DNA of 64,000 nucleotides from contig CACLXU010000001.1 of the NCBI GenBank assembly GCA_902610995.1, forward strand, positions 144,422 through 208,421, given 5' to 3'. Source of the DNA: an uncultured SAR86 cluster bacterium (GTDB lineage Bacteria > Pseudomonadota > Gammaproteobacteria > Magnimaribacterales > TMED112). Positions 6,113 to 23,511 of the stretch are shown here, piece after piece. Numbering within the stretch: the first letter of the stretch is position 1; each line of letters opens with the position of its first letter. A program made the position numbers and the translations under genes. The notes beneath the pieces are model-generated. The model saw only the letters and a program-made list of their open reading frames with translations, was not told where the DNA came from and did not search any database.

Positions 6113-6159
6113 AAATATATTTTAGTTCTGACCAGAGTTTTTACCAATAGAAAAGTTAG

Positions 6160-6570
6160 TTAGTCTGCGAAATGTTTTTCTTTTTCTTCGTTGATAGTTT
6201 TGACTTCTGCACAGTACTCAGCGGTAGGTCTAGATAATAGTCTTCTTAAACCAATGGGCTCTCCTGACTCTAAGCAATATCCATAGTCACCTGATTTGAT
6301 CCTCATTATAGCTTTATCTATCTTAGGGAGTAATTTGGATTCTCTTTCAACGATCCTCAAGAAAAGCATAGAATCAATTTCATGCTGTGCCCTATCAACC
6401 TCATCACTACAAGAAGGGGGGTTACTGAGTCTATCTTTGGCATCCCTAATATGCGTAAGGGTTTCTTTCTTGAGATCATCTAGTAGATCTCTAAAGAAAT
6501 GAAGTTGCTCCTTATTCATATAGTTTTTCTTCGGAGCTTTTAAAATTTTTTCTTTAGTTAGCATAAGCAA
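6160..6570 (-). CDS. dksA: RNA polymerase-binding transcription factor DksA, Cys-depleted (CxxS...CxxV) variant
   Basis: 136 aa, colinear with E. coli DksA: YMNKEQLHFFRDLL, coiled-coil tip DEVDRA (DxxDxA) and C-terminal GYCLESGEPIGLRRLLSRPTAEYCAEVKT. The track start at 6570 is TTG; an ATG lies at 6564. Confidence 0.85.
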   Translation of the reverse strand: MLMLTKEKILKAPKKNYMNKEQLHFFRDLLDDLKKETLTHIRDAKDRLSNPPSCSDEVDRAQHEIDSMLFLRIVERESKLLPKIDKAIMRIKSGDYGYCLESGEPIGLRRLLSRPTAEYCAEVKTINEEKEKHFAD

Positions 6571-6633
6571 AGAACATATTTTATGTATGAAAGAGAAAAT
6601 ATCAACAAAAACTTTTGCTAAATCACTTATTTT

Positions 6634-7920
6634 TTACATACTGTTTGCTTTATTGACACTCTTAGAAATGCCAAAACCAAGATACGTTAAATAAATTGCA
6701 AGAGGAATAATAGCTAGAGGAGCAGCATATGCAACCAGACCAAAAGAAAACATTAAATTAAAAAGCAGACCTCCAGAGGCATCGCCAAATCTATTTGTAA
6801 AAGTGTCAATAAAAACTGTGGATTTATATTTTTCCTTTGAATTCAGTGTTGTATAGACAGCCTCCCGAGCTGGTTTGTTTAACCCATACTCAAATGGTCG
6901 CATCACTGCTTGCAAAATTAAAAAAATAAGTACGGCTGAGGATCCTAATAAGATATCAGAGAAATAACCTGAAACTGCAAGAAAAGCCAAAGCAAAAATT
7001 AAACCATAAGCTGAAAGAACAAATTTTATCCCAAGAAAACTTGATCTAAGAATTGAAGCAGTAAGGAGTATTTGAATAAATAAAGTAACCAACGGCACAA
7101 TTGAGTCTGCCCTTCCGAATATTCTAGTTTTTTCGGCAGAATCATCCGTATAGTTATTTATAATTTCAAGCTGAAAGAACCAAAGTGCAGTTGAAAGACA
7201 TGTCCAAACGAATGCATAGATAACAAACTGCTGAATTAGAGGATTTGTACGTATTTGTGAAAACTGCTCGAGAGTATTTGATAGACTGTTATCAGCTGAC
7301 GTGCCAAAAAAGTTATCTTCTCTCTGAACACGTGATGAAAAAAAGATAGCCAGTAATAAAGATAATACTGCTATTAGGAGGGAAAGATTTTCTTTGTCAT
7401 AAAGAAATCCATCAACTAAGGCTCCCCCACATGAAGCACCTAATGAGCCAAATCCACTGATAATTCCAAAGAATTTTTTCCCATCCTCAATATCAAAAGA
7501 ATTAACGGTCATTGCCCAGAAAATAGCTACAACAAAAAAATTGAATATGTTATACCAGACATAGAAGAATGTTTTAATAGCTGAAATTTCTGGAAAATAG
7601 TTATAAACGAGGTAAAAACAACATAAACAAATGATAAAGAAGCCATAAATATAAGGTACTAGTTTGGTAAGACGAATTTTAGAAACTATTAGCGAATAAA
7701 TTGGATTAACCAGCAACATAACAATTACAATTATTAGTAAATAAAAGGGTAAATCACTAGTTCCAATATTTGCTGCTATTGTGTTTCTAAATGGTCTCAA
7801 AACAAACAATGAAAAAAGTACGAAAAAGAAAAATAAACCGGAGAAAACAGTATTCCTTGAGAAGAAAGAAAAGTTGTTAAAGTAGCTGTTAAAACCTTTA
7901 AGCATGATTCCTATAGGCAA
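6634..7920 (-). CDS. MFS-type carrier resembling the ATP:ADP antiporter / nucleotide transporter (NTT, TLC) family
   Basis: 428 aa with about 12 hydrophobic spans. It has colinear motif similarity to Rickettsia/Chlamydia Tlc proteins: LRPFRNTI (cf LRxxKD), FYVWYNIFNFFVVAIFWAMTVN...GKKFFGIISGFGSLG (cf FY..ELW....LFW.FAN....AKRFY..FG), and KYKSTVFIDTFTNRFGDASGG (cf K.K..ID...R.GKSGG). Its start overlaps the phoA stop by 10 nt. Confidence 0.5.
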   Translation of the reverse strand: MPIGIMLKGFNSYFNNFSFFSRNTVFSGLFFFFVLFSLFVLRPFRNTIAANIGTSDLPFYLLIIVIVMLLVNPIYSLIVSKIRLTKLVPYIYGFFIICLCCFYLVYNYFPEISAIKTFFYVWYNIFNFFVVAIFWAMTVNSFDIEDGKKFFGIISGFGSLGASCGGALVDGFLYDKENLSLLIAVLSLLLAIFFSSRVQREDNFFGTSADNSLSNTLEQFSQIRTNPLIQQFVIYAFVWTCLSTALWFFQLEIINNYTDDSAEKTRIFGRADSIVPLVTLFIQILLTASILRSSFLGIKFVLSAYGLIFALAFLAVSGYFSDILLGSSAVLIFLILQAVMRPFEYGLNKPAREAVYTTLNSKEKYKSTVFIDTFTNRFGDASGGLLFNLMFSFGLVAYAAPLAIIPLAIYLTYLGFGISKSVNKANSM

Positions 7921-9161
7921 GAGGCATTTTCTAAACTATCTATACCTAGTGCTTCTTTCATAGCAAAAAATATGTCTGTGTTATCCATAATGCCAGAAAA
8001 ATTTTCTGAGCCTGGCCCAAATGCAAAAACTGGAACCATGCCACCTGTATGAGATCCTATTCCAATGCCAGTATTCCAGGAAACATTCATTTTGCCTGTT
8101 GGACGATATCTAACATCCGTAGGTTCAATTAATAGGCCTCCAGTTTCATGGTCTGCTGTAACAATTAAAAGGGTGTCTGAGTTTTGTTTGGCAACTTCAA
8201 GGGCATCGTCGACAACCTCTTCAAATTCAGCCATTTCGATTAAAAAACTCTGAAAATCGTTATCGTGTGATCTCCAGTCAATCATTGAACCTTCAATAAG
8301 TGCAAAGTAACCTCTGCAACCGTTTGCAATATGCTCTAATGATTTTTTATGCACAAATTTAAACATGTCTAGGAGAGAAGGTTCTGATTCTTTTCTTACG
8401 AGCTCATCCTCAGCAAACAAACCAAAAATTCGTGATGATAGAGGAAATTCTAAATTTAAAGCTTCTTTGGTTTCAATTAAATTGTATTGATTTTTAATTT
8501 TTGAAATAAGATCTTCTTCATCTTCTCTAAATCCACCCTTCGATTTTGGATAAAAATAACCTTTCCCTCCACCAAGGATTAAATTAATCTTTGAATCAAA
8601 GATTGCTGTTGCGATTTTGTCTTTTTCATATCTTGAATCCACATGCGCTGCAAAAGCTGCAGGTGTTGCGTGAGTTATTTCTGAGGTTGCTACAAGAGAT
8701 GAGAAATATCCCTTTTCATTTAACATCTCTAATATATTTTTTACTGGTATTTTTTCAGGATTTACCCCCACATATCTATTTATAGTCTTAACCCCAGAAC
8801 TAAATGCAGTAGCTGAGGCAGCTGAGTCAGTTATAAGTGTATTTAAAGCATGCGTTTTAACTAAACCTGAAATAGGGAACTTATCAAATGCAGTAATATG
8901 GTTTGGGCCACCCTTCATAACTCTATAGGACGTAATGTGATTTGAACCCATTCCATCGCCAATTAAAAAGATAATATTTTTTGCCTTATTGGTTACAGGC
9001 TGAATATTCCGATTGGTTACTTTACTTTCAAAATCTATTTTGATGAGTTCTTTATCTTTTTTAGGAACCTCAAATAAAAATGGTGCATATAAATTAATTA
9101 GATATGCAGTTGCAGCCATAGTTATAAAAGCAGTAAGAAAATATTTAAGAAAACTTTTCAT
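7911..9161 (-). CDS. phoA: alkaline phosphatase, PhoA family (Zn/Mg-dependent), exported
   Basis: 416 aa. N-terminal signal/anchor, then DGMGSNH, TDSAASATAF (nucleophile Ser), IDWRSHDND, TADHETGG and GSHTGG. This is the complete PhoA-type metal-ligand set. Confidence 0.85.
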   Translation of the reverse strand: MKSFLKYFLTAFITMAATAYLINLYAPFLFEVPKKDKELIKIDFESKVTNRNIQPVTNKAKNIIFLIGDGMGSNHITSYRVMKGGPNHITAFDKFPISGLVKTHALNTLITDSAASATAFSSGVKTINRYVGVNPEKIPVKNILEMLNEKGYFSSLVATSEITHATPAAFAAHVDSRYEKDKIATAIFDSKINLILGGGKGYFYPKSKGGFREDEEDLISKIKNQYNLIETKEALNLEFPLSSRIFGLFAEDELVRKESEPSLLDMFKFVHKKSLEHIANGCRGYFALIEGSMIDWRSHDNDFQSFLIEMAEFEEVVDDALEVAKQNSDTLLIVTADHETGGLLIEPTDVRYRPTGKMNVSWNTGIGIGSHTGGMVPVFAFGPGSENFSGIMDNTDIFFAMKEALGIDSLENASCL

Positions 9162-9976
9162 TTCTGATCAAGAGATTTAGATTTCTTTTCAAGCTTTTTA
9201 TCTCTAGATATGGAGTAATCAAAGTCAATGATTGATCCCTCCCAATCTCCATACATAGGATTTGAAAACATATACCAAGAGACGCCCCAATAATCATCAT
9301 ATTTTTTAGTAACGCTAATTCTTTCAGCAGGTGAAAGATTATTTTCTTTAATATCAACAAAATCACCTAGGTTATCGCCAAACATCATTACAATTCTGTA
9401 ATCTCTAGCTAATAACTCTCTTCTTGAAGATTTATTGGAACCCCAATTATTTTCACCTCTAGATAAAATAAAGTCCTTTTTTTTCGGCAGATTTAGGCCA
9501 AGCTTCTGGTAATTTTTAATAGTTGCTTCTTCAATTTCCTTGACTCTATTTGTAACAAAGAAAATTTCTACGCCTTCTGAAAGAGCAAACTGAAGAAATT
9601 CAAGCGCACCTGGTAAAAATTCTGCTTGCTCCTCTTTGGCCCAGCTTACCCAACCATCTGGATAAGAAGTATTGTTTTTTATCAATCTTGCCTGGTAAGC
9701 GCTGTTATCCAGGACGGTTTGGTCAACATCAAGAATTATCGCGGGTGGCTTATTGTGATAATTATCTGTTTGTTCAAGTGCGGCAGTGTGATATTTGTTT
9801 TGAAGCAGTTCTTTTAAATTATTTTCTGCTGCTTTATAGATAGATTTAGAATTTGCATAAAACTCTGCAGATGACTGTACAAATAATGTTGCCATGAGAA
9901 GTTCATGATCTTTCTCATTACTATTCAGAGGTGTGCTGATTAAAATAAAAATGATTATTATTTTAAAAAATTTCAT
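9158..9976 (-). CDS. class C acid phosphatase / 5'-nucleotidase, e(P4) family (HAD superfamily), exported
   Basis: 272 aa. Signal peptide; ILDVDQTVLDNS (DxDxT) and GDNLGDF motifs of the DDDD phosphatase family. No lipobox Cys. ATGA overlap with phoA. Confidence 0.8.
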   Translation of the reverse strand: MKFFKIIIIFILISTPLNSNEKDHELLMATLFVQSSAEFYANSKSIYKAAENNLKELLQNKYHTAALEQTDNYHNKPPAIILDVDQTVLDNSAYQARLIKNNTSYPDGWVSWAKEEQAEFLPGALEFLQFALSEGVEIFFVTNRVKEIEEATIKNYQKLGLNLPKKKDFILSRGENNWGSNKSSRRELLARDYRIVMMFGDNLGDFVDIKENNLSPAERISVTKKYDDYWGVSWYMFSNPMYGDWEGSIIDFDYSISRDKKLEKKSKSLDQK

Positions 9977-9990
9977 AAGTCATTATATCC

Positions 9991-12570
9991 TTAATCTTTT
10001 GGGCTAAGCTCAAATTGAATATTGATTAATCTCCCCCTTGGATCATGTACTCTAGTATCAAAGCTAAAATCAGGTGCGTCATAGAGTTTTGGGGGCTGCT
10101 CATCAAAAAGGTTTATCAGAGAAAATGAGGTTGTTAAATCCAAACCCTCAAAAAGATTTTTAAATTTCTGTCTGTATGTAAAATCAAATACCAAAAAACT
10201 ACTAACCTTATTCTTATAACCCTTGCTAAGTGCACTATCCGGAATATTCCGCTCATTTGTATAGCCATCAATATATCTTGCAATTAAGCCTAATTCGTGA
10301 GGGGCATAATTCCATTGAATAAAAGAATTTATTCTTTTTTTTGGGATTGAGTGAGTATTGGCATCAAAGTTAAATCTGCCTACTCTATTTATCATGGCGC
10401 TGGTTCCGGCTCCAGGAGTTAAGAATTCAATAAAATTGGTACCTTTTATGATTAATTTTAAGTTTCCTAAATCATCAAGATCAAAATTCTCGTTAAAAGA
10501 AAAATCAAATCCAGAAACTTTTGTGGATGTCTCATTAAAGTAAGTTGTTGTCACACCTATTAATTCTCCAGATTCGTTTCTTGTTATGCTTGATCCATAG
10601 GGATCATTTATTAAAAGGGCTTGAGAGCTTTCTGATTCAACTCTATTTTTATAGTCAATGGACCAGTAATCTATAATTAATTCTCGTTTAAAAGAATTAA
10701 GCTCTATTCCAAAGTTTAAATTGTCCGCCAGTGAAGGTTTCAGCTCAGGGTTTCCAATTTGTGCTTGGCGTACAAATATATTGTCATCAAAATCTCTGAC
10801 ACTTCCTAGATTAATTTCACTGGAAAACATTTGAGCCATAGATGGCATTGAAAAAGATGATCCATAGGACCCTCTAAGGGAAATTAAATCATTTAATTTA
10901 GACTTAAATGACATTTTAGGATCAAATGAGGAATAGTTATCTGATTCTTCATATCTTCCTGAAATCATTAAATCAATGAAATCAGTAGGGCTTGATCTTC
11001 CTTCAAAAAATAGTGCAAACTTAGTTCTATCAGTAGCAACATTCTTACCACCACCTAGGAAAAAGAGATCGGCAATTTTTGTAATTTTCCCATCTGCATC
11101 AAACTCAGCTCTAGCAATATCGTTATATGTAATATCTAAATTTTCAAAACTAATTTGGGAACCAAATGCTAGGTAGTAGTTATTGATGCTTGTCCTGCCA
11201 ATAATATCTAGCACTGATAAAGTCCCGATTTTTTCCGAAATTTCTGCACCCCTCACATAATCAATTAAAGATTGTGAGTTTTTATTAGGCTCAAATATGT
11301 TCCATTGTTCATTTCCAGAGGCACCTCCATTCCCACTCATAGCATCTTGAAACCTCGAATCAATTATATCGGGTCTATTGTGTTTATTTTTATGTTCGCT
11401 AGTTGTAAGTGAAAATTCAAAATCAAAATCTTCTACTACTTTATAAAATGAATAATTTAGATGGTATTGAGAAATATCTTTTGGGGAAAATGGTGAGGGA
11501 AATTGAGACCCTAAAGGTCGACCTCTCCACTTTACCGGAACATTAAAAGGGGATGATCCCTCCCCTGGCTGAATAAGTCGAGTTAAATATGGTAGCGCTG
11601 GATAAGAAGGTGATTGGGGATTATCAATTACCCTTATATTTGAAGTCATCAAAGTAAAGTTATGAGAATTATTTCTAAGATTCAGGAAAAATTTTGAGTG
11701 ATCTTCAGTATTGACGATATTAAATCTCGTCCCGTAAAGAAATCTACAAAATCCTTGCAAAACACCACCATTCTCTACGCAGTTTGGATCGGGGACAATC
11801 TGATTTGCAGTGTATACACCCTCATATAAACCTTCTTCAATTTCGTCTGGTGCAGTAGTTATAAAAGTATTACCAAGACCACTTAAGGCTAATTCTGCTA
11901 TATTTGGAATTTCAGAAGCTGATAAAGGTGATCTATCAAGAATATTTGCAGCAAATACAAGGTCCCAGTTATTAATTTCAGAACCATACAGAAGACCAAA
12001 GTTTTGGTCCTTTTGACTGTAATTGGTTGTAGATTGATCGCCAAAACGAATTTTTATTCCTTTAAAGTCGTTATGAGTCAAAAAATTAATAACACCTGCG
12101 ACAGCATCTGATCCATAAGACGAGGTAGCTCCTTCTTTTAAAATTTCTATTTTTTTGAATGCAATTTCAGGGATGATATTTATATCAATGTATCCTTCAC
12201 CCTCATTGGAGGGTGTTCCTGCAAAGGTGTGTCTTTTTGAATTTATTAATAACAATGTTGAAGCATGATCCAATCCTCTTAACGTAATTGATGCCATCCC
12301 TTGATCAACTCCTCCCAATGTGTTTGATTGAAAGCGTGAACCAGAAGATATATTTAAGTATTTACTGATTTCAGCTAAGTTTGTAATGTTAAGTGAATTG
12401 AAGTCTGTGTCTGTAATGATTTCAGTTGGACTAATGTTTTCAGTAGCTTCACCCAGAAGAGAGCCAGTAATTACAACTTCTTCTATGTCATTTTCATCAC
12501 TAGAAATTAGCCCAAGAAAAAGAATTATTTTCAAAAACAGCAGGTTGTGACTTTTTATTTTCATCATCAT
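9991..12570 (-). CDS. TonB-dependent outer-membrane receptor
   Basis: 859 aa. Signal peptide; TonB-box-like IEEVVITGS; plug motifs (ASITLRGL, IEILKEGATSSYGSDAVAGVINF); long barrel region of alternating aromatic/polar strands. The stop lies 14 nt before the acid phosphatase start. Confidence 0.85.
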   Translation of the reverse strand: MMMKIKSHNLLFLKIILFLGLISSDENDIEEVVITGSLLGEATENISPTEIITDTDFNSLNITNLAEISKYLNISSGSRFQSNTLGGVDQGMASITLRGLDHASTLLLINSKRHTFAGTPSNEGEGYIDINIIPEIAFKKIEILKEGATSSYGSDAVAGVINFLTHNDFKGIKIRFGDQSTTNYSQKDQNFGLLYGSEINNWDLVFAANILDRSPLSASEIPNIAELALSGLGNTFITTAPDEIEEGLYEGVYTANQIVPDPNCVENGGVLQGFCRFLYGTRFNIVNTEDHSKFFLNLRNNSHNFTLMTSNIRVIDNPQSPSYPALPYLTRLIQPGEGSSPFNVPVKWRGRPLGSQFPSPFSPKDISQYHLNYSFYKVVEDFDFEFSLTTSEHKNKHNRPDIIDSRFQDAMSGNGGASGNEQWNIFEPNKNSQSLIDYVRGAEISEKIGTLSVLDIIGRTSINNYYLAFGSQISFENLDITYNDIARAEFDADGKITKIADLFFLGGGKNVATDRTKFALFFEGRSSPTDFIDLMISGRYEESDNYSSFDPKMSFKSKLNDLISLRGSYGSSFSMPSMAQMFSSEINLGSVRDFDDNIFVRQAQIGNPELKPSLADNLNFGIELNSFKRELIIDYWSIDYKNRVESESSQALLINDPYGSSITRNESGELIGVTTTYFNETSTKVSGFDFSFNENFDLDDLGNLKLIIKGTNFIEFLTPGAGTSAMINRVGRFNFDANTHSIPKKRINSFIQWNYAPHELGLIARYIDGYTNERNIPDSALSKGYKNKVSSFLVFDFTYRQKFKNLFEGLDLTTSFSLINLFDEQPPKLYDAPDFSFDTRVHDPRGRLINIQFELSPKD

Positions 12571-12628
12571 TTAGATACATATTAAATAGTACCATCTAAT
12601 ATAAATAAAAGGCTGTTATGTAGGATAT

Positions 12629-12650
12629 GGGAGAGGCTAAAGCCTCTCCC
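12629..12650 (-). terminator. GC-rich hairpin directly after the His-rich receptor gene (candidate terminator or RNA-stability element)
   Basis: GGGAGAGGCT-AA-AGCCTCTCCC is a perfect 10-nt inverted repeat (realistically 9 bp plus a 4-nt loop). It begins 8 nt after the stop at 12658 and is the only GC-rich element in the 87-bp spacer. No clean U-tract follows on the minus strand. Confidence 0.4.
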
Positions 12651-12657
12651 AAAATAA

Positions 12658-14955
12658 TTAGAAGTCTAATCTAAATTTCACACCAAAATTCAGTCCAGGA
12701 AGAGGTACCTGGTCTTTTACATAAGATGCGTGGTTTCTTGCAACTTCATCAAGAATATTATTTGCGAATAATGAAACTCTAAGGTTATTACCTGAGGCGA
12801 GGTTATAATCCTTACCAACTCTAAGGTTTAACATTTTATAGCCATCAGTTATTGTTTCACCATCACCAATTTCCTTTTGTGCTTCTACGTCCTTAAGAGT
12901 GAGGTTAAGTCTTAAATCGCTAGCTACATAAGATAAACTATATAGATTTCTGGCAGGTGTGATTCTTGGAATATTTTCACCATCGGAAAATTCTCCATTA
13001 ACTACATCTCTTCCAAAGGAGAGCTCAAGCTCGCCTGATGCAAGGATAAATCTTCTACCAAATTCAAATTCATAACCATTAAAATCAGCGTCTTGCTGAA
13101 GAAAATCTGCATGAATTAGACCTCCATGATCATCATGTCCCTCGTGCTCATCATGATCTTCATCGCCATGATCCTCATCGTGATGGTCCTCGTCCATGTG
13201 TTCAAGCTCATCTTGCAGATAGATATAATTTGAAATGCTATTTTGAAATGCAGTAAACTGTCCAAAAAAGTTTCCATCATCATAGAACAATGTCCCTTCA
13301 AAATTATTGCCTCTTTCTGGATCTAGGTTTACATCACCAGTTTCAAATCTACCTCGTGCTAAGTGTGGTCCATTCATTGCTAAATTTGTGCTAGAAGGTG
13401 CATTTGCAACGCTTGAAAAACTTACATCAAAGCTCATTGAATCATTGATCTGTTTTCTGAGACTTGCAGAGAAACTATATTCTTCATAAGTATTATCAAA
13501 AAATACTTCTTCCATTTCATGATGTTCATCCTCGTGCTCATCACCATGCTCGTCACCATGATCATCATCGTGATGCTCTTCTTCATGATGTTCTGTTATG
13601 GAACCTTTTCGATTTACTGAGTCATACCTTACCCCAAGATCCAAATCAAAATCTCCAGGCAAATCAGTGCCAAGATAATATCCGATGTTGAACTCTTCAC
13701 TTTGAACTGGGTTCATGAAAGCTTCAGCACCAACTATTGCCTCATCCATCTCTAAGAAATTAACCATCACCTTTGCAGAATGAGAATTTCTGAATGGCGC
13801 AAAGTCAAAGATTGCACCAAATTCTGTTGCATCATTTGTAAATACTGTAGGTCCTTCCTCATGTCCATGATCATCATGATCTTCACCTTCATGCTCATCA
13901 CCGTGTTCGTCTCCATGTTCTTCAGCATGCTGTTCTGAAAATGCATACTCAGTGTCCCTAAAGAAGTAGTCAACACTGTTTACCAAGCTACCATTAACAT
14001 TAAAACTACCTTGAAGATTAACAGCCTGTGAATCTGTGAAGGCATAAATTCTCTCACCTTCATGCTCATCACCATGCTCATCACCATGATCTTCATCGCC
14101 ATGCTCATCACCATGCTCATCACCATGCTCTTCACCATGATCATCGCCATGGAATGGAATTCCATATACTGTTTCTTGGTCCTCTAGAGATATACCAAAA
14201 TATCCCCAGTCACCTACTCTAGAAACCCCAAATCTTGAAGTTGTTGATCCAAAATCAGAATTTGCAAGAAAGCCCATGTCTTCTTCATGCTCGTCATGAT
14301 CTTCATCTTCGTGCTCTTCCTCAGAATGGATAATGGCACCATTTGGAATATCATAGTTTCCAAATTGAGAATCCTTAAATGAAAAGGTGAGATTTAACCC
14401 ACCGACATTATTTTCATAGAAAAAGTTCTTGGAATCACCCTCATTAACAGTTTGAAATTCAACACCCAGACCGCCAGCTTGCTCCTCAAAATTTTTCTGA
14501 GAAATAGTGTTATCAATGATATTGACAACACCTCCAAGTGCGCCTTTTGCATAAAGCAATGATGAAGGTCCTCGAATTATTTCTATTTGTCTTATATTAA
14601 AAAGGTCAACTTCATTAAGATGGTCAGCACCCATGCCAGCAACATCGGCAACACTAAGACCATTTCTCAGAATTTTTACCCTTCCATCCAGCAACCCACG
14701 TATAGCAGGCTGACCAACTGCAGCTCCATAATCTACTGAAGATACTCCTAAAAGATCATCAATCGATTCACCTAAACTCTGTGTGCCCGTATCGCCAAGT
14801 TCTTCACCATTTACGATATGGATTGGATCCCCTATTTCAGAAAGTTGTCTGTCTTCGTCAGTTAGTGACGAGGTTACGACAACTTCTTCGACCTCTTGTG
14901 TTTCGACTATGAATGTGAGCGAAACAAATAAACTTATAATTAATATTTTTTTCAT
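12658..14955 (-). CDS. TonB-dependent receptor with five His/Asp/Glu-rich inserts (candidate divalent-metal, ZnuD-like, receptor)
   Basis: 765 aa. Signal peptide; TonB-box-like EEVVVTSS; plug IEIIRGPSSLLYAKGALGGVVNII; canonical C-terminus GVKFRLDF. It carries five H/D/E/G low-complexity blocks (listed as repeat features). Confidence 0.85.
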   Translation of the reverse strand: MKKILIISLFVSLTFIVETQEVEEVVVTSSLTDEDRQLSEIGDPIHIVNGEELGDTGTQSLGESIDDLLGVSSVDYGAAVGQPAIRGLLDGRVKILRNGLSVADVAGMGADHLNEVDLFNIRQIEIIRGPSSLLYAKGALGGVVNIIDNTISQKNFEEQAGGLGVEFQTVNEGDSKNFFYENNVGGLNLTFSFKDSQFGNYDIPNGAIIHSEEEHEDEDHDEHEEDMGFLANSDFGSTTSRFGVSRVGDWGYFGISLEDQETVYGIPFHGDDHGEEHGDEHGDEHGDEDHGDEHGDEHEGERIYAFTDSQAVNLQGSFNVNGSLVNSVDYFFRDTEYAFSEQHAEEHGDEHGDEHEGEDHDDHGHEEGPTVFTNDATEFGAIFDFAPFRNSHSAKVMVNFLEMDEAIVGAEAFMNPVQSEEFNIGYYLGTDLPGDFDLDLGVRYDSVNRKGSITEHHEEEHHDDDHGDEHGDEHEDEHHEMEEVFFDNTYEEYSFSASLRKQINDSMSFDVSFSSVANAPSSTNLAMNGPHLARGRFETGDVNLDPERGNNFEGTLFYDDGNFFGQFTAFQNSISNYIYLQDELEHMDEDHHDEDHGDEDHDEHEGHDDHGGLIHADFLQQDADFNGYEFEFGRRFILASGELELSFGRDVVNGEFSDGENIPRITPARNLYSLSYVASDLRLNLTLKDVEAQKEIGDGETITDGYKMLNLRVGKDYNLASGNNLRVSLFANNILDEVARNHASYVKDQVPLPGLNFGVKFRLDF
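13123..13209 (-). repeat. His/acidic coding block 5 (aa 583-611 ELEHMDEDHHDEDHGDEDHDEHEGHDDHG)
   Basis: Coordinates derived from the translation of the receptor ORF. Confidence 0.9.
13510..13593 (-). repeat. His/acidic coding block 4 (aa 455-482 EHHEEEHHDDDHGDEHGDEHEDEHHEME)
   Basis: Read from the translation. The DNA contains ctcatcaccatg and ctcgtcaccatg in tandem. Confidence 0.9.
13852..13935 (-). repeat. His/acidic coding block 3 (aa 341-368 EQHAEEHGDEHGDEHEGEDHDDHGHEEG)
   Basis: Read from the translation. The DNA contains near-copies of the same 12-nt unit (ctcatcaccgtg, ttcgtctccatg). Confidence 0.9.
14053..14151 (-). repeat. His/acidic coding block 2 (aa 269-301), tandem 12-nt HGDE repeats
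   Basis: The plus strand shows ctcatcaccatg (reverse complement CATGGTGATGAG = HGDE) four times exactly, as two tandem pairs, plus degenerate copies (ctcttcaccatg, atcatcgccatg). The protein reads HGDDHGEEHGDEHGDEHGDEDHGDEHGDEHEGE. Confidence 0.9.
14278..14328 (-). repeat. His/acidic coding block 1 (aa 210-226 HSEEEHEDEDHDEHEED)
   Basis: Coordinates derived from the translation of the receptor ORF. Confidence 0.9.
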
Positions 14956-14990
14956 TTTTACCTCCTTTGAAAAAATTAAATCTTAAAAAC

Positions 14991-15257
14991 CTAATCTTTC
15001 TGAGGAGGCGCTCTGGAGTGTGCACTTCTATGAGTTTTTTTAAAGTTGGATTGTATTGATGATTTTGATTTTAAATCAATGGGTAATTCGTTTTTTTCAA
15101 ATTTACTTGTTAATGAATTTAATTCAGATTCTTCACATGCAAGGCATTCAATTACAGTTTGTTCCTCAATCTCATGGTGATCATGAAGCAGAGGTTCAGC
15201 AATTAAGCCAAATGAAAGAAAAATTGTAAAAACTAAATTCTTACTGCTGTCCAACAT
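14991..15257 (-). CDS. small exported His/Cys protein, unknown function, first gene of the receptor locus
   Basis: 88 aa. N-terminal hydrophobic segment (LVFTIFLSFGLIA), then HDHHEIEE and a CxxC (ECLACEE), with a basic C-terminal tail. It lies 35 nt upstream of the His-rich receptor on the same strand. I recognise no family. Confidence 0.4.
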   Translation of the reverse strand: MLDSSKNLVFTIFLSFGLIAEPLLHDHHEIEEQTVIECLACEESELNSLTSKFEKNELPIDLKSKSSIQSNFKKTHRSAHSRAPPQKD

Positions 15258-15287
15258 AGGCTAACTATACCAGAAAAATCCTTTATT

Positions 15288-15317
15288 TATCAATGATAGA
15301 TATTTTTCTCAATATCT
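15288..15317 (-). promoter_or_regulatory. two adjacent AT-rich inverted repeats in the 119-bp region upstream of the small His/Cys ORF (candidate operator)
   Basis: TATCAATGATA (15288-15298, an 11-bp palindrome with Fur/Zur-like ATCATTGATAA content on the minus strand) overlaps AGATATT-tttctc-AATATCT (15298-15317). This could be chance in AT-rich DNA. Confidence 0.2.
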
Positions 15318-15376
15318 TTTCTGCTTAAGTAAACTTTTCAAGTTCAATATATATTCTTTCAAAAATAATTTTTTTA

Positions 15377-17125
15377 TTAAGGTTGTCTTATAGTGGCCAA
15401 AATCAATCCTACTTTCTTGGGGGGATTTGGGAAAAATTTTATGCAAAGAGCAGCGGTTAAAAAGTTGACTATCATTCCAATTACACCAAAGCCTTCAGGG
15501 GATATACCCAAGAACCAATAATCTGAATTATTAAAATTTGGAAAAATAAATTTGAAGTAAATTATATATGAAAGTGTTGTAATCAAACCTAGAATCATCC
15601 CAAGAATTGCTCCTTCTTTATTGATATTTTTAAAAAATATTCCCATTAGTAGTGCAGGAAAAATAGTTGACGCCGCCAAACCAAAAGCCAGAGCAACAAC
15701 CTGAGCCACAAAACCAGGAGGATTAATACCAAAATAACCCGCAATTAGAATTGCTATACTTGCAGCAATACGAGCGTAAAGTAATTCTTGTTTTTCAGTA
15801 ATTTTTGGTCTGAACGTTTTTTTCATTAAATCATGAGAGATCGAAGAGGAAATTACTAATAGCAAGCCAGCTGCTGTTGAAAGTGCAGCTGCAAGTGCCC
15901 CAGCAGCAACTAATGCAAATACCCATGGTGGTAAATTTGCAATTTCAGGATTAGCTAGCACCATAATATCTCTGTCAATATATAGCTCATTTTGACTATC
16001 TTCATTCAGCTTATTAGAAATGATTCTTTCGCCATAAATGCCTACCTCAGAAGTAAATGAGGGTTGTATGCCTTCGAATGCATTCCCGGGGTAGAGCTGC
16101 ATTGCCCCATCATCATTTTTATCTTTCCAGGCTACAAGACCTATACTCTCCCAATTTTTAAACCATTCTGGGGCATCAATATACTTTGTATCTTGTATAG
16201 AGTCTGCAATGTTTGCTCTTGCAAATGCTCCTACTGCAGGGGCTGTTGTGAATAGTAACGCAATAAATATAAGAGCATAGCCCACAGATTTTCTGGCATC
16301 CTTAACTTTGGGAACTGTAAAGAATCTTACGATAACATGAGGTAATCCTGCTGTTCCAAACATTAAAGCTGCTGTTATACAAATGATATCAAATGTACTT
16401 TTAGTGTTTTCTGTGTATGGGTTAAAGCCAAGTTCCTCTGTAATTCGATCTAGTTTATCTAAGAGAAATTCTGAACTTCCATTTACGGTATCACCAAAGC
16501 CCAATTGAGGCACTGGATTTCCAGTTACTAAAATTGAGATAAATATCGCAGGAACTAAATAGGCAAAGATTAAAACGCAGTATTGAGCAACTTGTGTATA
16601 TGTGATGCCTTTCATGCCTCCCATAACAGCGTAAAAGAAAACAATCACCATGCCGATAATTACTCCTAGATTGATATCTACTTCAAGGAATCTTGAAAAA
16701 ACAATTCCCACACCTCTCATTTGTCCAGCGATGTAGGTAAATGAAATGAAAATTAAACACAGCACGGCAACGATTCGTGCAAGGTCAGAATAATATCGAG
16801 TTCCGATAAATTCGGGTACAGTGTATTTTCCAAACTTTCTCAAATATGGCGCTAGAAGGAGCGCAAGCAAAACATATCCACCTGTCCACCCCATGAGATA
16901 AACTGCGCCATCCCTTCCAGAAAAAGCAATAATGCCTGCGATAGAAATAAAAGATGCAGCTGACATCCAATCAGCTGCTGTAGCCATCCCGTTTGCAACC
17001 GGGTGGACTCCTTTTCCAGCCACATAAAAATCCCCGGTATCTTTCGCTTTACTCCAAAATGCAATTCCAATATAGAGTGCAAAAGTAAGTCCAACAAATA
17101 AGTAAGTTAATAATTGAACACTCAT
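15377..17125 (-). CDS. sodium:solute symporter family permease (ActP/VC_2705-like large subunit)
   Basis: 582 aa with about 13-14 hydrophobic spans and SSS-family architecture. It is translationally coupled (4-nt overlap) to a DUF4212 small subunit, the known two-gene arrangement for this subfamily. Confidence 0.85.
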   Translation of the reverse strand: MSVQLLTYLFVGLTFALYIGIAFWSKAKDTGDFYVAGKGVHPVANGMATAADWMSAASFISIAGIIAFSGRDGAVYLMGWTGGYVLLALLLAPYLRKFGKYTVPEFIGTRYYSDLARIVAVLCLIFISFTYIAGQMRGVGIVFSRFLEVDINLGVIIGMVIVFFYAVMGGMKGITYTQVAQYCVLIFAYLVPAIFISILVTGNPVPQLGFGDTVNGSSEFLLDKLDRITEELGFNPYTENTKSTFDIICITAALMFGTAGLPHVIVRFFTVPKVKDARKSVGYALIFIALLFTTAPAVGAFARANIADSIQDTKYIDAPEWFKNWESIGLVAWKDKNDDGAMQLYPGNAFEGIQPSFTSEVGIYGERIISNKLNEDSQNELYIDRDIMVLANPEIANLPPWVFALVAAGALAAALSTAAGLLLVISSSISHDLMKKTFRPKITEKQELLYARIAASIAILIAGYFGINPPGFVAQVVALAFGLAASTIFPALLMGIFFKNINKEGAILGMILGLITTLSYIIYFKFIFPNFNNSDYWFLGISPEGFGVIGMIVNFLTAALCIKFFPNPPKKVGLILATIRQP

Positions 17126-17370
17126 TTATCTTTATTCTTATCCTGATATTTTTTATCTAACTTATTCATCAGATATACATAAATAAAAATTAATATTACA
17201 AAGAAAAAAATACTGCCTTGTTGAGCAAACCAAAAGCCAAGCTTGAAACCACCAATTTTGAACTGATCAAGCCACTCAGAAAAAATTATTCCAAACCCAA
17301 AGGAAACCAAGAACCAGATCGAGAGAAGTACAAATATTATTCTAAGATTCTCTTTCCAGTAGTCATTCAT
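17122..17370 (-). CDS. DUF4212 small subunit of the sodium:solute symporter
   Basis: 82 aa with two helices. YWKENLRIIFVLLSIWFLVSFGFGI...GFKLGFWFAQQGSIFFFVILIFIYVYLMNKLDKKY matches the DUF4212 pattern. Confidence 0.75.
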   Translation of the reverse strand: MNDYWKENLRIIFVLLSIWFLVSFGFGIIFSEWLDQFKIGGFKLGFWFAQQGSIFFFVILIFIYVYLMNKLDKKYQDKNKDK

Positions 17371-17446
17371 AAGATCACATTATATAGCAGTTAAACATTA
17401 AGAAAAATTTACTAGTGCTTTATTGTTTATGGTTAAAATAGGATGG

Positions 17447-18286
17447 TTATTTTGTTAGGGTTGCATACATACTATCGCTAAAAACTTGCTTATCAAAAAG
17501 ACCCATTTTTATTTTGCTATAGCCTGCTTTTTTACAGGTTTTAACCAGCGTCTCGGGAGTGAAGTAATTTACATGATCAGGATGTCTAAACCCACACCAT
17601 TTTTCCTTTCTATACAATCTATTAAAGGAGTTAAAATTTGGAACTTTTATAAAAATAACGCCACCATCTTTTAGTTTGTTATATGCATTTTTCAAAAGGC
17701 CTACAGGATTTACCTCATGTTCAAGAAATGATCGCAAAACAAAAATATCGATACTGTTGTTGGCAAATTCAAGCATACCATCCACTGCATTATTGCAAAC
17801 CCAATGTCCTTTAGGCGCATTTTTCTTTGCAAACTCCGCAAGACTCTTTGAAATCTCTATACCATTAGGTATACATCTGTCCTGAACATTCTCAGGTAAC
17901 TCTGCAATAGTATTAATTAATGTTTGGCCTTCGGCGCAGCCGACATCAACCATCATAATGTCGCCTTTAAGACTGTTTTTAGCTATATATGACTTAATCA
18001 TATCTCTGATTTTGTTTCTTTTGGTGAGTCCTTTTAATTTTTTTAGTCTGTTGCTTACTGCAGATCTTATGGGTTCTTCATCAACTCTTTTCTTTTTCTC
18101 AATTGTTCGTGTTTTTTCCCATGCTAGATCTTCCTCTAAATGCTCATACTCAGGTGGGTTTTGCAGATAAACTAATTTACTTTCCATGCATTTAACAATT
18201 TTCCAGGGTGATGGTGCATAAAAACTTAGATCAGATGTTTCTGTTTCACGCCCTAAAATGGGTGAGACTCTATTAAGCAATTTCAT
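17447..18286 (-). CDS. class I SAM-dependent methyltransferase
   Basis: 279 aa. Motif I VDVGCAEG, later LKDGGVIFIKVPN; Methyltransf_11/23-like layout. Confidence 0.75.
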   Translation of the reverse strand: MKLLNRVSPILGRETETSDLSFYAPSPWKIVKCMESKLVYLQNPPEYEHLEEDLAWEKTRTIEKKKRVDEEPIRSAVSNRLKKLKGLTKRNKIRDMIKSYIAKNSLKGDIMMVDVGCAEGQTLINTIAELPENVQDRCIPNGIEISKSLAEFAKKNAPKGHWVCNNAVDGMLEFANNSIDIFVLRSFLEHEVNPVGLLKNAYNKLKDGGVIFIKVPNFNSFNRLYRKEKWCGFRHPDHVNYFTPETLVKTCKKAGYSKIKMGLFDKQVFSDSMYATLTK

Positions 18287-18362
18287 TCAAGCATTATACA
18301 AAAATTAAATTAAATCGGGAAAGTTAGATTTTTCTCATAATAATCAAATTTGGCGCTGCTTA

Positions 18363-18530
18363 ATGCTTGATTCTGATGAAAGAGAACAAAGGCACAAGGG
18401 AGTCAGTGAATATGTTCATGTCCCAGTTGGAACTAATTTAGATGCAGGGACCTATGATGCAGATAATAATTGGGTGAGATGTGGAGCAAAACACAATGAT
18501 ATATTTCCAAGAATTGGAGACCTAATATGA
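18363..18530 (+). CDS. orphan 55-codon ORF (hypothetical small protein; may instead be part of an sRNA)
   Basis: Own translation: MLDSDEREQRHKGVSEYVHVPVGTNLDAGTYDADNNWVRCGAKHNDIFPRIGDLI. It is the only ORF in the largest gap of the window and is followed 84 nt later by a strong hairpin terminator. It has no obvious RBS and I recognise no family. Confidence 0.2.
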   Translation: MLDSDEREQRHKGVSEYVHVPVGTNLDAGTYDADNNWVRCGAKHNDIFPRIGDLI

Positions 18531-18613
18531 TATCAATTAGGTTTCAATCCCAGACCATCTGTCACTAAAGCTATAGAAAAATCTAAAAACTCATAATTAC
18601 AACTAGAATAAAT

Positions 18614-18638
18614 CCCTTCAATTAATTGAAGGGTTTTT
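18614..18638. terminator. bidirectional rho-independent terminator (perfect 20-nt palindrome)
   Basis: CCCTTCAATTAATTGAAGGG (18614-18633) is followed by TTTTT on the plus strand and by ATTTATT on the minus strand. It lies 35 nt downstream of the tRNA-Ile 3' end and downstream of the orphan plus-strand ORF. Confidence 0.6.
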
Positions 18639-18667
18639 ATTCAAAGTTATTTTGCATCAAAAAGAAC

Positions 18668-18744
<77 letters not shown>

Positions 18745-18753
18745 GAGGGAGAC

Positions 18754-18759
18754 ATTATA
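18754..18759 (-). promoter_or_regulatory. candidate -10 box for tRNA-Ile
   Basis: A perfect TATAAT on the minus strand sits 9 nt upstream of the mature tRNA 5' end. The -35 candidates (TTCCAG/CTTCCA) are weak. Confidence 0.25.
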
Positions 18760-18800
18760 TGACTATCAATTAAGTCTGGAAAGGGGCAAATAATTATTAA

Positions 18801-19631
18801 TTATTGATTTTCTAGAATTTGTAGAATGGCAAAACTTACATCATGACCGCCATTTTGGTTTTGAGAAGTTATAAATCTTTTTTCTTCATCAACTACGGTA
18901 TGGTTTGCAAAAATATCTCTGAACCTTGTATTGCTCTCAAATTCAACACCAGCTTTTTTAAGTTCTATTTCGGGGTGCATTGGTGTAAAGGCAATACCAA
19001 GTTCTTCAATTTGTTTATCTGTAACACCAGTCATTCTTTTTCCAGAAATAAGAAAGTCTCCGTTGGGTTTTTTGGCTCTAATAAACCCTAAAACCCCATG
19101 ACATATTCCCCCGATTAGTGCATCAGAATTAAAGTAGGCATCTGAAATTTTTATTCCCAAATCTTCAGAAAATCCAAGGTCATATGCGGCTCCCCATCCA
19201 CCAGCAATGAAAATAATTGAGTAGTCCTTAAAATCTAAATTACTAATTTTTAAAGAATTTTTTAACTTTGAAACAGATAAATTATTTGATTCAAAAGCCT
19301 TATCCTCGGGGGTTTTTATAAAAAATGGAATAGGCTCTACAGGGATTTCTCCACCCTCTATACTCGCAATATCAACATCCATCCCAGCTTCTGAAAAATG
19401 GAAGTAAGGTACAGATAATTCAGAAAGAAATACCCCCGTCTTCTTCCCGCCAAGTTCTCCAGGTTTGTTTAATACTCCATGATTCGTCGCAATTATAAGT
19501 GCTCTCTTCCCATCAAAATTAAAATCAAATTCATGTGTGTTCTTCGGGTGAAGTCCAGCTAAATGCAATCCTGCAGGAAGTAGTATGATACCGGTAATAA
19601 TTACTGCCAAAAGGGTTAAGAAAATTCTCAT
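18801..19631 (-). CDS. DJ-1/PfpI (type 1 glutamine amidotransferase-like) family protein with N-terminal membrane anchor
   Basis: 276 aa. N-terminal TM helix; IFIAGGWGAAYDL and nucleophile-elbow GGICHGVLGF motifs. Confidence 0.7.
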   Translation of the reverse strand: MRIFLTLLAVIITGIILLPAGLHLAGLHPKNTHEFDFNFDGKRALIIATNHGVLNKPGELGGKKTGVFLSELSVPYFHFSEAGMDVDIASIEGGEIPVEPIPFFIKTPEDKAFESNNLSVSKLKNSLKISNLDFKDYSIIFIAGGWGAAYDLGFSEDLGIKISDAYFNSDALIGGICHGVLGFIRAKKPNGDFLISGKRMTGVTDKQIEELGIAFTPMHPEIELKKAGVEFESNTRFRDIFANHTVVDEEKRFITSQNQNGGHDVSFAILQILENQ

Positions 19632-19665
19632 AAATGTGATTATATATATTTTCTCAATGAAAAAA

Positions 19666-20187
19666 TTATTGTGAAAAAATATTTAGCATTTTTGGTGCAA
19701 CAATAAACAACAAAATTACCACGACTGAACTGAAAATAAATTTAGCTGATAATTTATTTTTATAGGTGCTAGCAAAATATAACCCTGCAAAAAACCCTGT
19801 TAAGTAATGAAGTGCCAGCCCGAAGGATGTTCTAGAGCCACTGATAACTTTCGTTCCAATAATAACTTCTTGGACTAAGAAGATTGATACCATCACAGAG
19901 CATAGCCCAAATAAACCAAATGTAATAACCGACCTAATCTTGAAGTAACTCAATAAAGGTGTCCCAATGATAAATGTTGGCAAAAACCCAATTAAATAGA
20001 TTAAGAACAGTGTGGGGCCATAATTAAAGATATCAGATAACAAAGTAAAAACTATATCTGCAACACTTACTGAATCTACATAAGTGTCTATCCAGTAAAG
20101 TGAAAAGAATGAGCTTATTGGAGCTGAAAGTAAACTTGCAAAAGCGGTAGCACAAAATAAGTAGATAAAAAAACGAAGAATTCGCAT
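19666..20187 (-). CDS. hypothetical integral membrane protein
   Basis: 173 aa with about 5 hydrophobic spans. It lies 8 nt downstream of the PQQ-dependent dehydrogenase gene. I recognise no family. Confidence 0.5.
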   Translation of the reverse strand: MRILRFFIYLFCATAFASLLSAPISSFFSLYWIDTYVDSVSVADIVFTLLSDIFNYGPTLFLIYLIGFLPTFIIGTPLLSYFKIRSVITFGLFGLCSVMVSIFLVQEVIIGTKVISGSRTSFGLALHYLTGFFAGLYFASTYKNKLSAKFIFSSVVVILLFIVAPKMLNIFSQ

Positions 20188-20195
20188 TTATCCTG

Positions 20196-21317
20196 CTAAG
20201 GTGAGAGTTCAAAGATTTTACCACCTGGTCCGTCGGTTAACAGCAGTATATTGCCAGATGGTGTTTCATACACATTTCTTAGTCTTTCATTAAAATCTTT
20301 TAAAAGTATTTCCTCTTCAACCTTACCGCTATTTAGAGTCAATCTGCTTAAAATCTTGCCTGATAAAGCGGAGATGAAAAATGAATCTTTCCATTCTTTA
20401 AATTTTTTTCCGCTGTAAAGCATCATGCCAGATGGGGCTATAGATGGACGCCAATAGGTTAAAGGTTGTTCCATTCCTTCCATTTCTGTGAAAGGTGTAA
20501 TTTGAGCTCCGCTGTAGTCAACGCAATAACAAATTGCTGGCCATCCATAATTTTTTCCAGGTTCGACAATATTAAATTCATCCCCGCCTTTAGGTCCATG
20601 TTCGTTCTCATAAATTACATCATTACTGATGACAAGACCCTGCATATTTCTATGTCCATAAGAATATATTTCAGGTAAAGCGTTGTCTTGATCAACAAAT
20701 GGGTTATCGCTTGGGACTGAACCATCAGGATTGATTCTAATAATTTTTCCAAAATGATTATCTAAAAACTGAGCATCTTCTTTATTATTATAGCCATCCC
20801 CACTTGTGATAATTAAAGTTCCATCTGAGAGAAATGCTATTTTGCCACCATAATGAGCTGGCGCAGTTCGGTATGCTTTGGCTTTAAAAATTATCTTCAA
20901 GTCTTTTAGAGTATCGCCAACTAAAGAAGCTGATGCCACAAAGAGAGTGTTGGATGGACTAAATAAATCATCAACCAATTGGCCTTCTTCAGTATCTTCA
21001 GCAGAGTATGAAAAATAAATTTTTTTGTTCTCACTAAATTTTGGATCAAGAACAACATCAGAGAGACCACCCTGACCATCATATAGAACTTGTGGCACAC
21101 CTTTAACTGAATAAATAAGTTCTCCGGTATCTAAAGAAATAACTTTTAAGTTTCCCGGCATTTCTGAGAGAAGAAATTTGTCTTCATCAATAAATGCTAA
21201 ACTCCATGGATCATCAAAAGTATCACCTACTTGTCTTATATTAAATTCATAAGATTTTATAAATTGTGAGGATAGAAAAATTATCAAAAAAAATGTTTTA
21301 TTTAACAGGGAGTTCAT
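20196..21317 (-). CDS. PQQ-dependent soluble sugar (aldose) dehydrogenase, YliI/sGDH family
   Basis: 373 aa. Signal peptide; GHRNMQGL; HGPKGGDEFN; GWP; beta-propeller family pattern. Confidence 0.8.
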   Translation of the reverse strand: MNSLLNKTFFLIIFLSSQFIKSYEFNIRQVGDTFDDPWSLAFIDEDKFLLSEMPGNLKVISLDTGELIYSVKGVPQVLYDGQGGLSDVVLDPKFSENKKIYFSYSAEDTEEGQLVDDLFSPSNTLFVASASLVGDTLKDLKIIFKAKAYRTAPAHYGGKIAFLSDGTLIITSGDGYNNKEDAQFLDNHFGKIIRINPDGSVPSDNPFVDQDNALPEIYSYGHRNMQGLVISNDVIYENEHGPKGGDEFNIVEPGKNYGWPAICYCVDYSGAQITPFTEMEGMEQPLTYWRPSIAPSGMMLYSGKKFKEWKDSFFISALSGKILSRLTLNSGKVEEEILLKDFNERLRNVYETPSGNILLLTDGPGGKIFELSP

Positions 21318-21355
21318 ACACCAAATTTTAATATAAAATGAATTATTAAATAAGT

Positions 21356-23508: not shown

Positions 23509-23511
23509 TAT

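Follow-up and report, generated by a model that had tools for sequence, protein, structure and literature searches.

SAR86 and its relatives rank among the commonest heterotrophs of surface seawater, where zinc and copper are sub-nanomolar and strongly complexed. How such bacteria collect these metals is the question raised by one locus in a contig of an uncultured SAR86 cluster bacterium (GenBank assembly GCA_902610995.1, contig CACLXU010000001.1, positions 144,422 to 208,421; this whole stretch of 64,000 nt is referred to as the window). The locus encodes a TonB-dependent receptor interrupted by five blocks of histidine, aspartate, glutamate and glycine, for which the original prediction, made from the DNA alone, had proposed a role in the capture of scarce divalent metal, Zn in first place. 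The receptor was found to be related to the zinc receptor ZnuD, and to be preceded by a conserved leader open reading frame (ORF) resembling known metal-responsive arrest peptides. The chances appear about even that the locus is a two-gene metal-uptake unit, in which a ZnuD-type divalent-metal scavenger is placed under arrest-peptide control, with Zn2+ as the likeliest metal and Cu2+ as a close second. Coordinates written with two dots are those of the window, and all features described from it lie on its minus strand; related loci are designated by L numbers, with positions given in each locus.

A ZnuD-related TonB-dependent receptor

The receptor gene (12658..14955), whose strand was not given in the original prediction, starts with ATG and encodes 765 residues. 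The protein contains no cysteine, nor do 24 of 26 homologues. The ordinary TonB-dependent frame recognized in the original prediction was confirmed. The protein displayed a signal peptide at its N-terminus (MKKILIISLFVSLTFIV), the TonB box EEVVVTSS, the motif IEIIRGPSSLLYAKGALGGVVNII and the terminal GVKFRLDF, which ends in the C-terminal aromatic residue F. It matched the Pfam plug domain (PF07715; aa 39-143, 14527..14841; E 6.9e-19, 68.8 bits against a cutoff of 23.9) and the TonB-dependent barrel (PF00593; aa 298-734; E 1.4e-20, 75.1 bits against a cutoff of 27). With 22 strands following the plug in an AlphaFold model, the features that define the TonB-dependent receptor superfamily (plug and barrel, 22 strands, signal peptide, TonB box and terminal aromatic residue) were all found, and the receptor is a TonB-dependent outer-membrane transporter.

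In both sequence and fold, the characterised protein nearest to it is ZnuD (TdfJ) of Neisseria meningitidis, known from the structures PDB 4RDR/4RDT/4RVW. The ZnuD model NF038289 (zinc piracy receptor) was the best of 24 NCBIfam hits, and a phmmer search of the PDB returned ZnuD as the top solved structure (E 3.6e-30). A profile built from 27 homologues matched ZnuD at E 7e-54, and Foldseek, run with the AlphaFold model, matched it at E 4.7e-32 (TM 0.69/0.75). In the Foldseek search ZnuD led the next proteins (PqqU, PhuR and OprC) by seven orders of magnitude, OprC standing about ten orders behind. The kinship with ZnuD invoked by the original prediction was thus recovered by family model, sequence, family profile and fold.

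Five histidine-rich blocks in predicted receptor loops

A recount found the five H/D/E/G blocks at the residues where they had been described, with 4, 8, 7, 9 and 8 histidines, that is 36 of the 42 in the protein. These 36 histidines are concentrated in 135 block residues, against six in the remaining 630 (Fisher p = 2e-23). In the AlphaFold model (built from 27 sequences; mean pLDDT 63.5, pTM 0.67), the five blocks formed low-pLDDT segments, predicted as disordered, each lying between an odd strand and the next even one. Since such connections are extracellular in TonB-dependent barrels, the model places the blocks in loops L2, L3, L4, L6 and L8. Block 1 (aa 210-226, 14278..14328) falls in L2 between b3 and b4, with pLDDT under 50 at residues 201-233 and strands at 187-198 and 235-248 on either side. 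Block 2 (aa 269-301, 14053..14151), an array of HGDE repeats, falls in L3 (b5-b6) and block 3 (aa 341-368, 13852..13935) in L4 (b7-b8). Block 4 (aa 455-482, 13510..13593), missing from some SAR86 subclades, falls in L6 (b11-b12), and block 5 (aa 583-611, 13123..13209) in L8 (b15-b16). As far as a model of moderate confidence allows, the original proposal that several extracellular loops carry the blocks, rather than periplasmic turns or the plug, holds for all five of them. The topology also agreed with a sequence alignment that places the start of block 2 on cluster 1 of ZnuD loop 3.

The DNA of the blocks is composed of imperfect tandem repeats of 9, 12, 15 and 27 nt, the clearest being a 12-nt unit (coding for HGDE) present in 7.3 copies at 14061..14151. 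Block length varied among close homologues, from 25 to 58 aa for block 2, for example. Their number and place varied far less: among the best 120 homologues, five blocks at the same positions were found in 118 of the 119 full-length proteins and four in the remaining one. This conservation of position across homologues shows the blocks to be a real, selected feature rather than the product of chance or of assembly. The sequence of the blocks drifts but their composition and position persist, the pattern expected of disordered tracts selected for their composition.

The receptor was 74% identical in a SAR86-like metagenome-assembled genome (MAG), where synteny with the window was complete, and 67% identical in a complete SAR86 genome. 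More than 3,700 database clusters matched it at E <= 1e-10, and five-block forms occurred beyond SAR86 in Porticoccaceae (HTCC2207) and in one MAG each of Azotimanducaceae and Alteromonadaceae. A wider survey of 126 full-length representatives at 50% identity displayed every block count from none to five: no block in 24 proteins, one in 32, two in 38, three in 16, four in 11 and five in the last 5. The five-block architecture thus stands at one end of a widespread gradient. The novelty claimed for it by the original prediction stood insofar as literature searches found no paper on multi-loop His-rich TonB receptors or on ZnuD in marine bacteria, and gave way insofar as the architecture is no one-off. 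In one distant relative (P0187, 868 aa), a single unbroken His/Asp/Glu tract of 180 aa occupied the loop-3 position, and the protein contained 66 histidines.

A candidate buried metal site

The buried zinc site of ZnuD is formed by D99, H100, E340 and H499 (PMC4557270). Numbering in the structure chain and in that paper differs by 14 residues, as verified on cluster 1 against the paper. HMMER alignment to 4rdr placed D111/H112 of the receptor plug (14620..14625) on D99/H100 (chain residues 113/114) and H531 (13363..13365), in an NGPH motif of the loop between b13 and b14, on H499 (chain H513). D111, H112 and H531 were invariant among 27 homologues, and the alignment indicates that three of the four zinc ligands of ZnuD are kept. 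An invariant E341-Q342-H343-x-E345 motif sits at the top of b7, where E341 and E345 are candidates, by position only, for the equivalent of E340.

The copper site of OprC is reportedly made of Cys, Met and His residues (CxxxM...HxM). The lack of cysteine in the receptor rules out a Cys/Met copper site of this type, as it rules out the loop-3 disulfide of ZnuD.

A conserved leader upstream of the receptor

A short ORF of 88 codons (14991..15257), not seen by the original prediction, ends 35 nt upstream of the receptor. Its product begins with a signal peptide, continues with LLHDHH and ECLACE, and ends with SRAPP, three more residues and the stop. These motifs comprise a histidine patch (H25-D-H-H28, 15174..15185), a CxxC (C38-L-A-C41, 15135..15146) and an RAPP (R82-A-P-P85, 15003..15014) encoded by AGA GCG CCT CCT.

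Upstream sequence could be read in 28 related loci, and in 27 of them an equivalent ORF of 87-136 aa preceded the receptor. The leader-bearing loci span four phyla and include Flavobacteria and other Bacteroidota, Opitutales and Acidobacteriota. In an alignment of 19 leaders, one His (H25 of the window leader), the first Cys, the Arg and both Pro were invariant, and most leader copies contained an HxxxH-type pair. Variants of the arrest motif were RGPP (L020, L026 and L028), RPPP (L024), TGPP (L021) and QAPP (L041, 2398-2670). The spacing from CxxC to RAPP was 40-43 residues in the 18 measurable loci, the window included, with a mode of 41. In L016, an Azotimanducaceae MAG (7459-7833), CxxC and RAPP lay in different reading frames, which suggests a frameshift. 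The leader of the SAR86-like L018 (7573-7845) lacked the second Cys (ECQYNEN), and its receptor frame (8001-10073) was broken, with a longest ORF of 103 aa; the copy may be decaying, or the assembly may be in error.

The leader escaped annotation. Pfam gave no hit for the window leader at E <= 10, and one of seven leader copies matched DUF2946 (PF11162) below threshold (L008, E 0.0019, 19.4 bits against a cutoff of 23.7). None of the 99 database clusters of the leader carried a Pfam domain or a functional name. Its motifs nevertheless recall a described class of regulators. In CruR of Bordetella pertussis, a DUF2946 protein, the ribosome stalls at RAPP, and copper bound to the nascent CXXC relieves the stall, turning the TonB transporter off (PMC9426467). 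This arrest was confirmed in vitro, with the third RAPP codon (the first Pro) in the P-site (PMC12992588), and RAPP arrest has been demonstrated for CruR, ApdA and ApdP (PMC9426467, PMC12992588, PMC10951233). Upstream ORFs (uORFs) with signal peptides and RAPP/RGPP are enriched upstream of TonB receptors (PMC12992588). In CutF-like leaders, the stalled ribosome opens a stem-loop that masks the downstream gene's ribosome-binding site (PMC9973294). The window leader follows all the sequence rules given for CutF-like leaders (PMC9973294). It also has the features of the CruR type: a small exported protein with a CXXC, an RAPP about three residues from its end, encoded by the first gene before a TonB-dependent transporter (TBDT). 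Judged by these motifs, it is a putative CruR/CutF-like arrest peptide, of a subfamily not captured by Pfam.

Predicted expression signals around leader and receptor

The Shine-Dalgarno (SD) sequence of the receptor (AAGGAGGT) was the strongest among the window ORFs; 41 of the 53 ORFs of at least 150 aa had no SD-like motif 4-17 nt before their start and 12 had one. RNAfold folded this SD into an mRNA hairpin (14960..15009) whose outer stem pairs GCCUCCU, from the Ala-Pro-Pro codons of the leader, with AGGAGGU, the receptor SD (14960..14966). The spacer holds a 14-bp A/U inner stem. At -18.8 kcal/mol, the receptor 5' region was the most stable of 53 window genes (mean -7.4, sd 3.3). Of 20 loci, 17 had the pairing of SD with the Ala-Pro-Pro codons (SD:APP) in their minimum-energy fold, and in most loci the energy rose when the spacer alone was shuffled (mean z -1.66). 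A rule by which the Pro codons of the leader would always be CCU, a perfect anti-SD, was considered and rejected: the codons vary (CCT, CCA, CCC, CCG), and the pairing forms via GCN-CC.

A promoter-like site (TTGATA-18 nt-TATAGT with a TG-extended -10; 15264..15293), read from its match to the consensus only, was the best sigma-70 match (10/12) between 7800 and 15500. It ends 6 nt before the leader ATG, which no SD precedes, and L001 and L003 showed the same layout. With the site so close to the start codon, the 5' untranslated region of the leader may be absent or very short, and translation of the leader may take place on a leaderless or near-leaderless mRNA.

On the other side of the receptor, a GC-rich 9-bp hairpin read from the sequence (GGGAGAGGC-TTTA-GCCTCTCCC, 12629..12650) begins 7 nt after the stop codon, an unusual element in DNA of 34.6% GC. 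It has no T-tract and so was not flagged by a terminator scan. It probably serves to terminate transcription or to stabilise the mRNA, and likely marks the 3' end of a two-gene unit made of leader and receptor.

Proposed mechanism of capture and control

In the proposed mechanism, five of the eleven extracellular loops have grown into disordered His/Asp/Glu/Gly tracts made up of slippage-prone repeats of 12-15 nt. By analogy with ZnuD loop 3, we infer that the tracts, pictured as a high-avidity antenna in the original prediction, would act as flexible ligands of low affinity and high capacity, gathering divalent transition-metal ions, whether free or weakly complexed, at the mouth of the barrel. 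They would hand these ions to a buried site with D111/H112 of the plug and H531 of the loop, from where a TonB-driven movement of the plug would let the ion in.

Expression of the receptor would be set post-transcriptionally by the 88-aa leader. A ribosome arrested on RAPP would cover the Ala-Pro-Pro codons, which form the 5' arm of the hairpin, so that the receptor SD would be freed and the receptor made. Once metal is sufficient, it would bind the nascent His/CxxC sensor, which would lie some 41 residues from RAPP and just beyond the exit tunnel, and release the arrest; the ribosome would then terminate, the hairpin re-form and receptor synthesis stop. This direction of the switch, in which metal means off as in CruR, is assumed because the receptor serves uptake.

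Which metal may be taken up

Zinc was proposed in the original prediction, and this assignment did not prove secure, with no Zur box found upstream and a CXXC...RAPP uORF whose tested kin respond to copper. We put zinc as the metal of the receptor at, or a little short of, an even chance. ZnuD is the nearest characterised relative, with three of its four zinc ligands kept, and the tracts resemble those of ZnuD and ZnuA. The invariant His, the HxxxH pair and the CxxC of the leader would together make a ligand set typical of Zn(II). The Maricaulis relative L019, the only one without a leader among the 28 loci with readable upstream sequence, has two Zur-type boxes instead, at -82 and -53, of which one core (GTTATTTCATAAC) is identical to the Zur box of Caulobacter znuL (PMC4176598), against a background of 0.047 per kb.

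Several observations weigh against a zinc receptor of the ZnuD type under arrest-peptide control. Identity to ZnuD is only about 19%, and the match to NF038289 reached 163.5 bits, far under the curated equivalog cutoff of 950, which makes the receptor a relative of ZnuD rather than an orthologue. The AlphaFold model of the receptor is of moderate confidence only. No counterpart of E340 was obtained, as a sub-profile of b6-b11 gave no alignment with ZnuD, and the Cys pair of ZnuD loop 3 is missing. SD:APP pairing was absent from the minimum-energy fold in three of the 20 loci and is partly compositional, since GCN-CCN-CCN can by nature pair with GGAGG. The annotated part of the window (about 570..30928) contained neither znuABC nor zur, and no Zur or Fur box was found upstream of the leader in 14 loci. 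The core GTTAT-N3-ATAAC, searched up to 700 nt upstream in 30 loci, occurred only in L019, plus a weak match with one mismatch in L020; the Zur motif of SAR86 may itself differ, so that this absence is not proof. Every experimentally tested CXXC/RAPP leader responds to copper (PMC9426467, PMC9973294). A palindrome was also noted in L011 (around 7600), where a perfect 7-3-7 ATGATAC-TTT-GTATCAT, some 65 nt upstream of the leader, is arranged like a Zur/Fur box but differs from one in sequence; it was not in the related L012.

Import of copper is accordingly a serious possibility, though we hold it for rather doubtful. The receptor would then scavenge Cu(II), in free or weakly chelated form, for heme-copper oxidases, with the leader a true, copper-sensing CruR orthologue and Cu(II) bound by the ZnuD-like site and the tracts. 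The leader fits this well, being exported, with a CXXC at a fixed spacing from an RAPP 2-5 residues before the C-terminus, as first gene before a TonB transporter. Regulation by CruR is copper-specific, and the great majority of cruR homologues are located in copper loci (PMC9426467). In L037, a complete cytochrome-c-oxidase assembly operon, COX2-COX1-CtaG-COX3-SURF1-COX15-CtaB-SCO1 (1411-9658), stands on the same strand immediately before leader and receptor, at a distance of 20 nt, one more point that counts against zinc; this synteny was, however, seen in one of about 29 loci. No other metal binds His tracts as tightly as Cu(II), which outcompetes Zn for His ligands. The leader departs from DUF2946 in its invariant His, its HxxxH pair, its lack of a third Cys, a spacing of 41 rather than 45 aa and the absence of a Pfam hit. 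As for the receptor, the 732-aa PDB entry 9rvq, labelled only 'TonB-dependent receptor' and taken here to be the copper transporter CrtA, matched only plug residues 40-157 (E 1.8e-5), whereas ZnuD is the clear nearest relative and Zur boxes precede the receptor of L019. CrtA likewise has no conserved Cys or Met and uses a His (PMC12914433), but CrtA transporters have a PepSY_TM gene downstream in more than 75% of their loci (PMC12914433), and no such gene stood beside the receptor in the loci examined. Nor is the receptor of the OprC type, as it has no Cys and TIGR01778 was not among the NCBIfam hits at E <= 0.01. These comparisons of sequence place it outside the CrtA family and apart from OprC/NosA-type receptors.

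A scavenger of broad spectrum or of another metal (Ni, Co, Mn, Cd or Fe), in which the tracts would form a non-selective cation exchanger and any selectivity be set downstream, seems improbable. Homologues bear the JGI label 'iron complex outermembrane receptor protein', which is a generic name. Varied metal permeases occur among the neighbours, such as the MerC-family protein of L010 and the HupE/UreJ_2 of L024, but Ni is not scarce in seawater, and bacteria that do not make B12 are assumed to need little free Co. His/acidic tracts are intrinsically promiscuous: crystals of ZnuD bind Cd at peripheral loop sites (PMC4557270), and CutF-like leaders are described as 'not all Cu-specific' (PMC9973294). 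On the contrary, a defined cognate metal is what the conservation of the Asp-His/His site and the presence of a dedicated metal-sensing leader point to. It is more improbable still, to the point of being hardly credible, that the blocks do not capture metal at all and are surface decoys against phage or grazers, spacers of charge or hydration, or neutral repeat slippage tolerated in loops. The slippage-prone tandem repeats, the variation in length between close strains and the predicted disorder would suit such an origin. H/D/E/G composition and position are, however, strictly kept across proteins of 47-89% identity and across phyla, and the enrichment goes together with a metal-sensing leader and is confined to the ZnuD-like clade. 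A His at about every fourth or fifth residue is also maintained while the sequence drifts, and neutral slippage would not be expected to preserve this periodicity in five separate loops.

The reading of a zinc scavenger can be carried further, to a proposal that we regard as speculative and rather less than likely. The leader would be a zinc-responsive, or at least non-copper, RAPP arrest peptide, with a His2Cys2-type sensor (HxxxH...E-CxxC), that replaces Zur in streamlined marine genomes. Together with a five-loop antenna of some 30-40 His, it would constitute the main zinc route of SAR86 and related abundant bacterioplankton at picomolar free zinc.

Gene neighbourhood

Genes around the receptor differed between lineages and were mostly unrelated to metals. 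No znuABC, zur, COG0523 or PepSY_TM gene was present among the neighbours of the related loci examined, and the neighbouring genes do not decide between zinc and copper. Hints of a metal link came from single lineages only, the cox/SCO1 operon of L037 being one. In L010, the gene of the MerC-family membrane protein (10166-10588) directly follows the receptor. In L024, HupE/UreJ_2 (6554-7183) precedes the leader, and two DUF4625 genes (9959-11017) follow the receptor.

Immediately downstream of the His-rich receptor, the window encodes a second TonB receptor of 859 aa (9991..12570), a class B acid phosphatase (9158..9976), a PhoA-type alkaline phosphatase (7911..9161) and a 428-aa ORF without assigned function (6634..7920). 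This cluster (6634..12570) may serve organophosphate uptake. The second TonB receptor follows the His-rich one in the SAR86 loci L001-L005, L014, L039 and L041, while PhoA was found in the window and in L039 and was absent from L001 and L002. PhoA needs zinc, and co-transcription with this cluster was considered as a link to zinc; it was not adopted because a strong hairpin follows the receptor stop and the pairing holds only within SAR86. On the other side of the leader, an overlapping membrane ORF of 82 aa stands before the gene of a sodium:solute symporter of 582 aa (15377..17370), an arrangement conserved in L001. The pair presumably resembles ActP/YjcH and appears unrelated to the receptor unit.

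Implications for trace-metal acquisition in the ocean

The leader-receptor pair is abundant in the ocean and uncharacterised, its receptor being annotated at present as a generic iron/TonB receptor and its leader not at all. The locus offers a concrete and widespread candidate for the acquisition of zinc or copper by SAR86, and the sequences of both genes could be used as metagenomic or metaproteomic markers of trace-metal stress. The tracts also form a natural series (0-5 blocks, 15-180 aa) in which the effect of disordered His tracts on capture kinetics could be followed. If the leader senses zinc, metal sensing by arrest peptides would extend beyond copper and would provide an alternative to Zur free of any regulator protein. 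Should the zinc switch hold, it would be the first translational-arrest switch to sense zinc, and the receptor the first TonB receptor with multi-loop metal capture.

Comparison with known systems

The locus combines two known kinds of element, a ZnuD-type receptor whose capture loop is multiplied five-fold and a CruR/CutF-type leader of an unannotated subfamily. Loop 3 of ZnuD has a flexible 'fishing' segment rich in His and Asp, and block 2 of the receptor starts at the same aligned position (cluster 1, HSHEYDDCHAD). In ZnuD the two clusters, of 11 aa each, share a single, Cys-bridged loop, whereas the receptor spreads its tracts, 17-33 aa long, over five loops. Zur represses ZnuD by way of a Zur box, in contrast to the arrest-peptide leader of the window receptor, for which no Zur box was found. 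Environmental ZnuD-like zinc receptors are known in Caulobacter crescentus (ZnuK, ZnuL and ZnuM) and Pseudomonas aeruginosa (PA0781), under transcriptional control by Zur; neither five His-rich loops nor an arrest-peptide leader is reported for any of them. The His/Asp/Glu loop of ZnuA is likewise disordered, measures 12-50 aa, binds Zn with micromolar affinity and is thought to feed a high-affinity site (PMC4542158). It belongs to another fold and another compartment and is one loop only, and the similarity of block 3 to the loop of Synechocystis ZnuA was not significant (E 0.96).

For the leader, the closest parallel is CruR, which controls CrtA/BfrG and, like the window leader, is encoded by the first gene before a TonB-dependent transporter. 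CruR has 145 aa against 88, and its CXXC-RAPP spacing is 45 +/- 2 (PMC9426467) against the 40-43 of the leaders described here. Canonical DUF2946 proteins have a third, semiconserved Cys and no conserved His, whereas these leaders have an invariant His and an HxxxH pair and no third Cys. The intergenic region of CruR is 162 nt long and GC-rich, with Rho termination as output; here it is 35-55 nt and A/U-rich, and the output is likely masking of the SD. The receptor behind the leader also belongs to a different TBDT family from the transporter of CruR. In CutF of Rhodobacter capsulatus, metal enhances stalling, and high copper switches a detoxifying oxidase on; for an uptake receptor such as the one described here, the opposite polarity would be expected.

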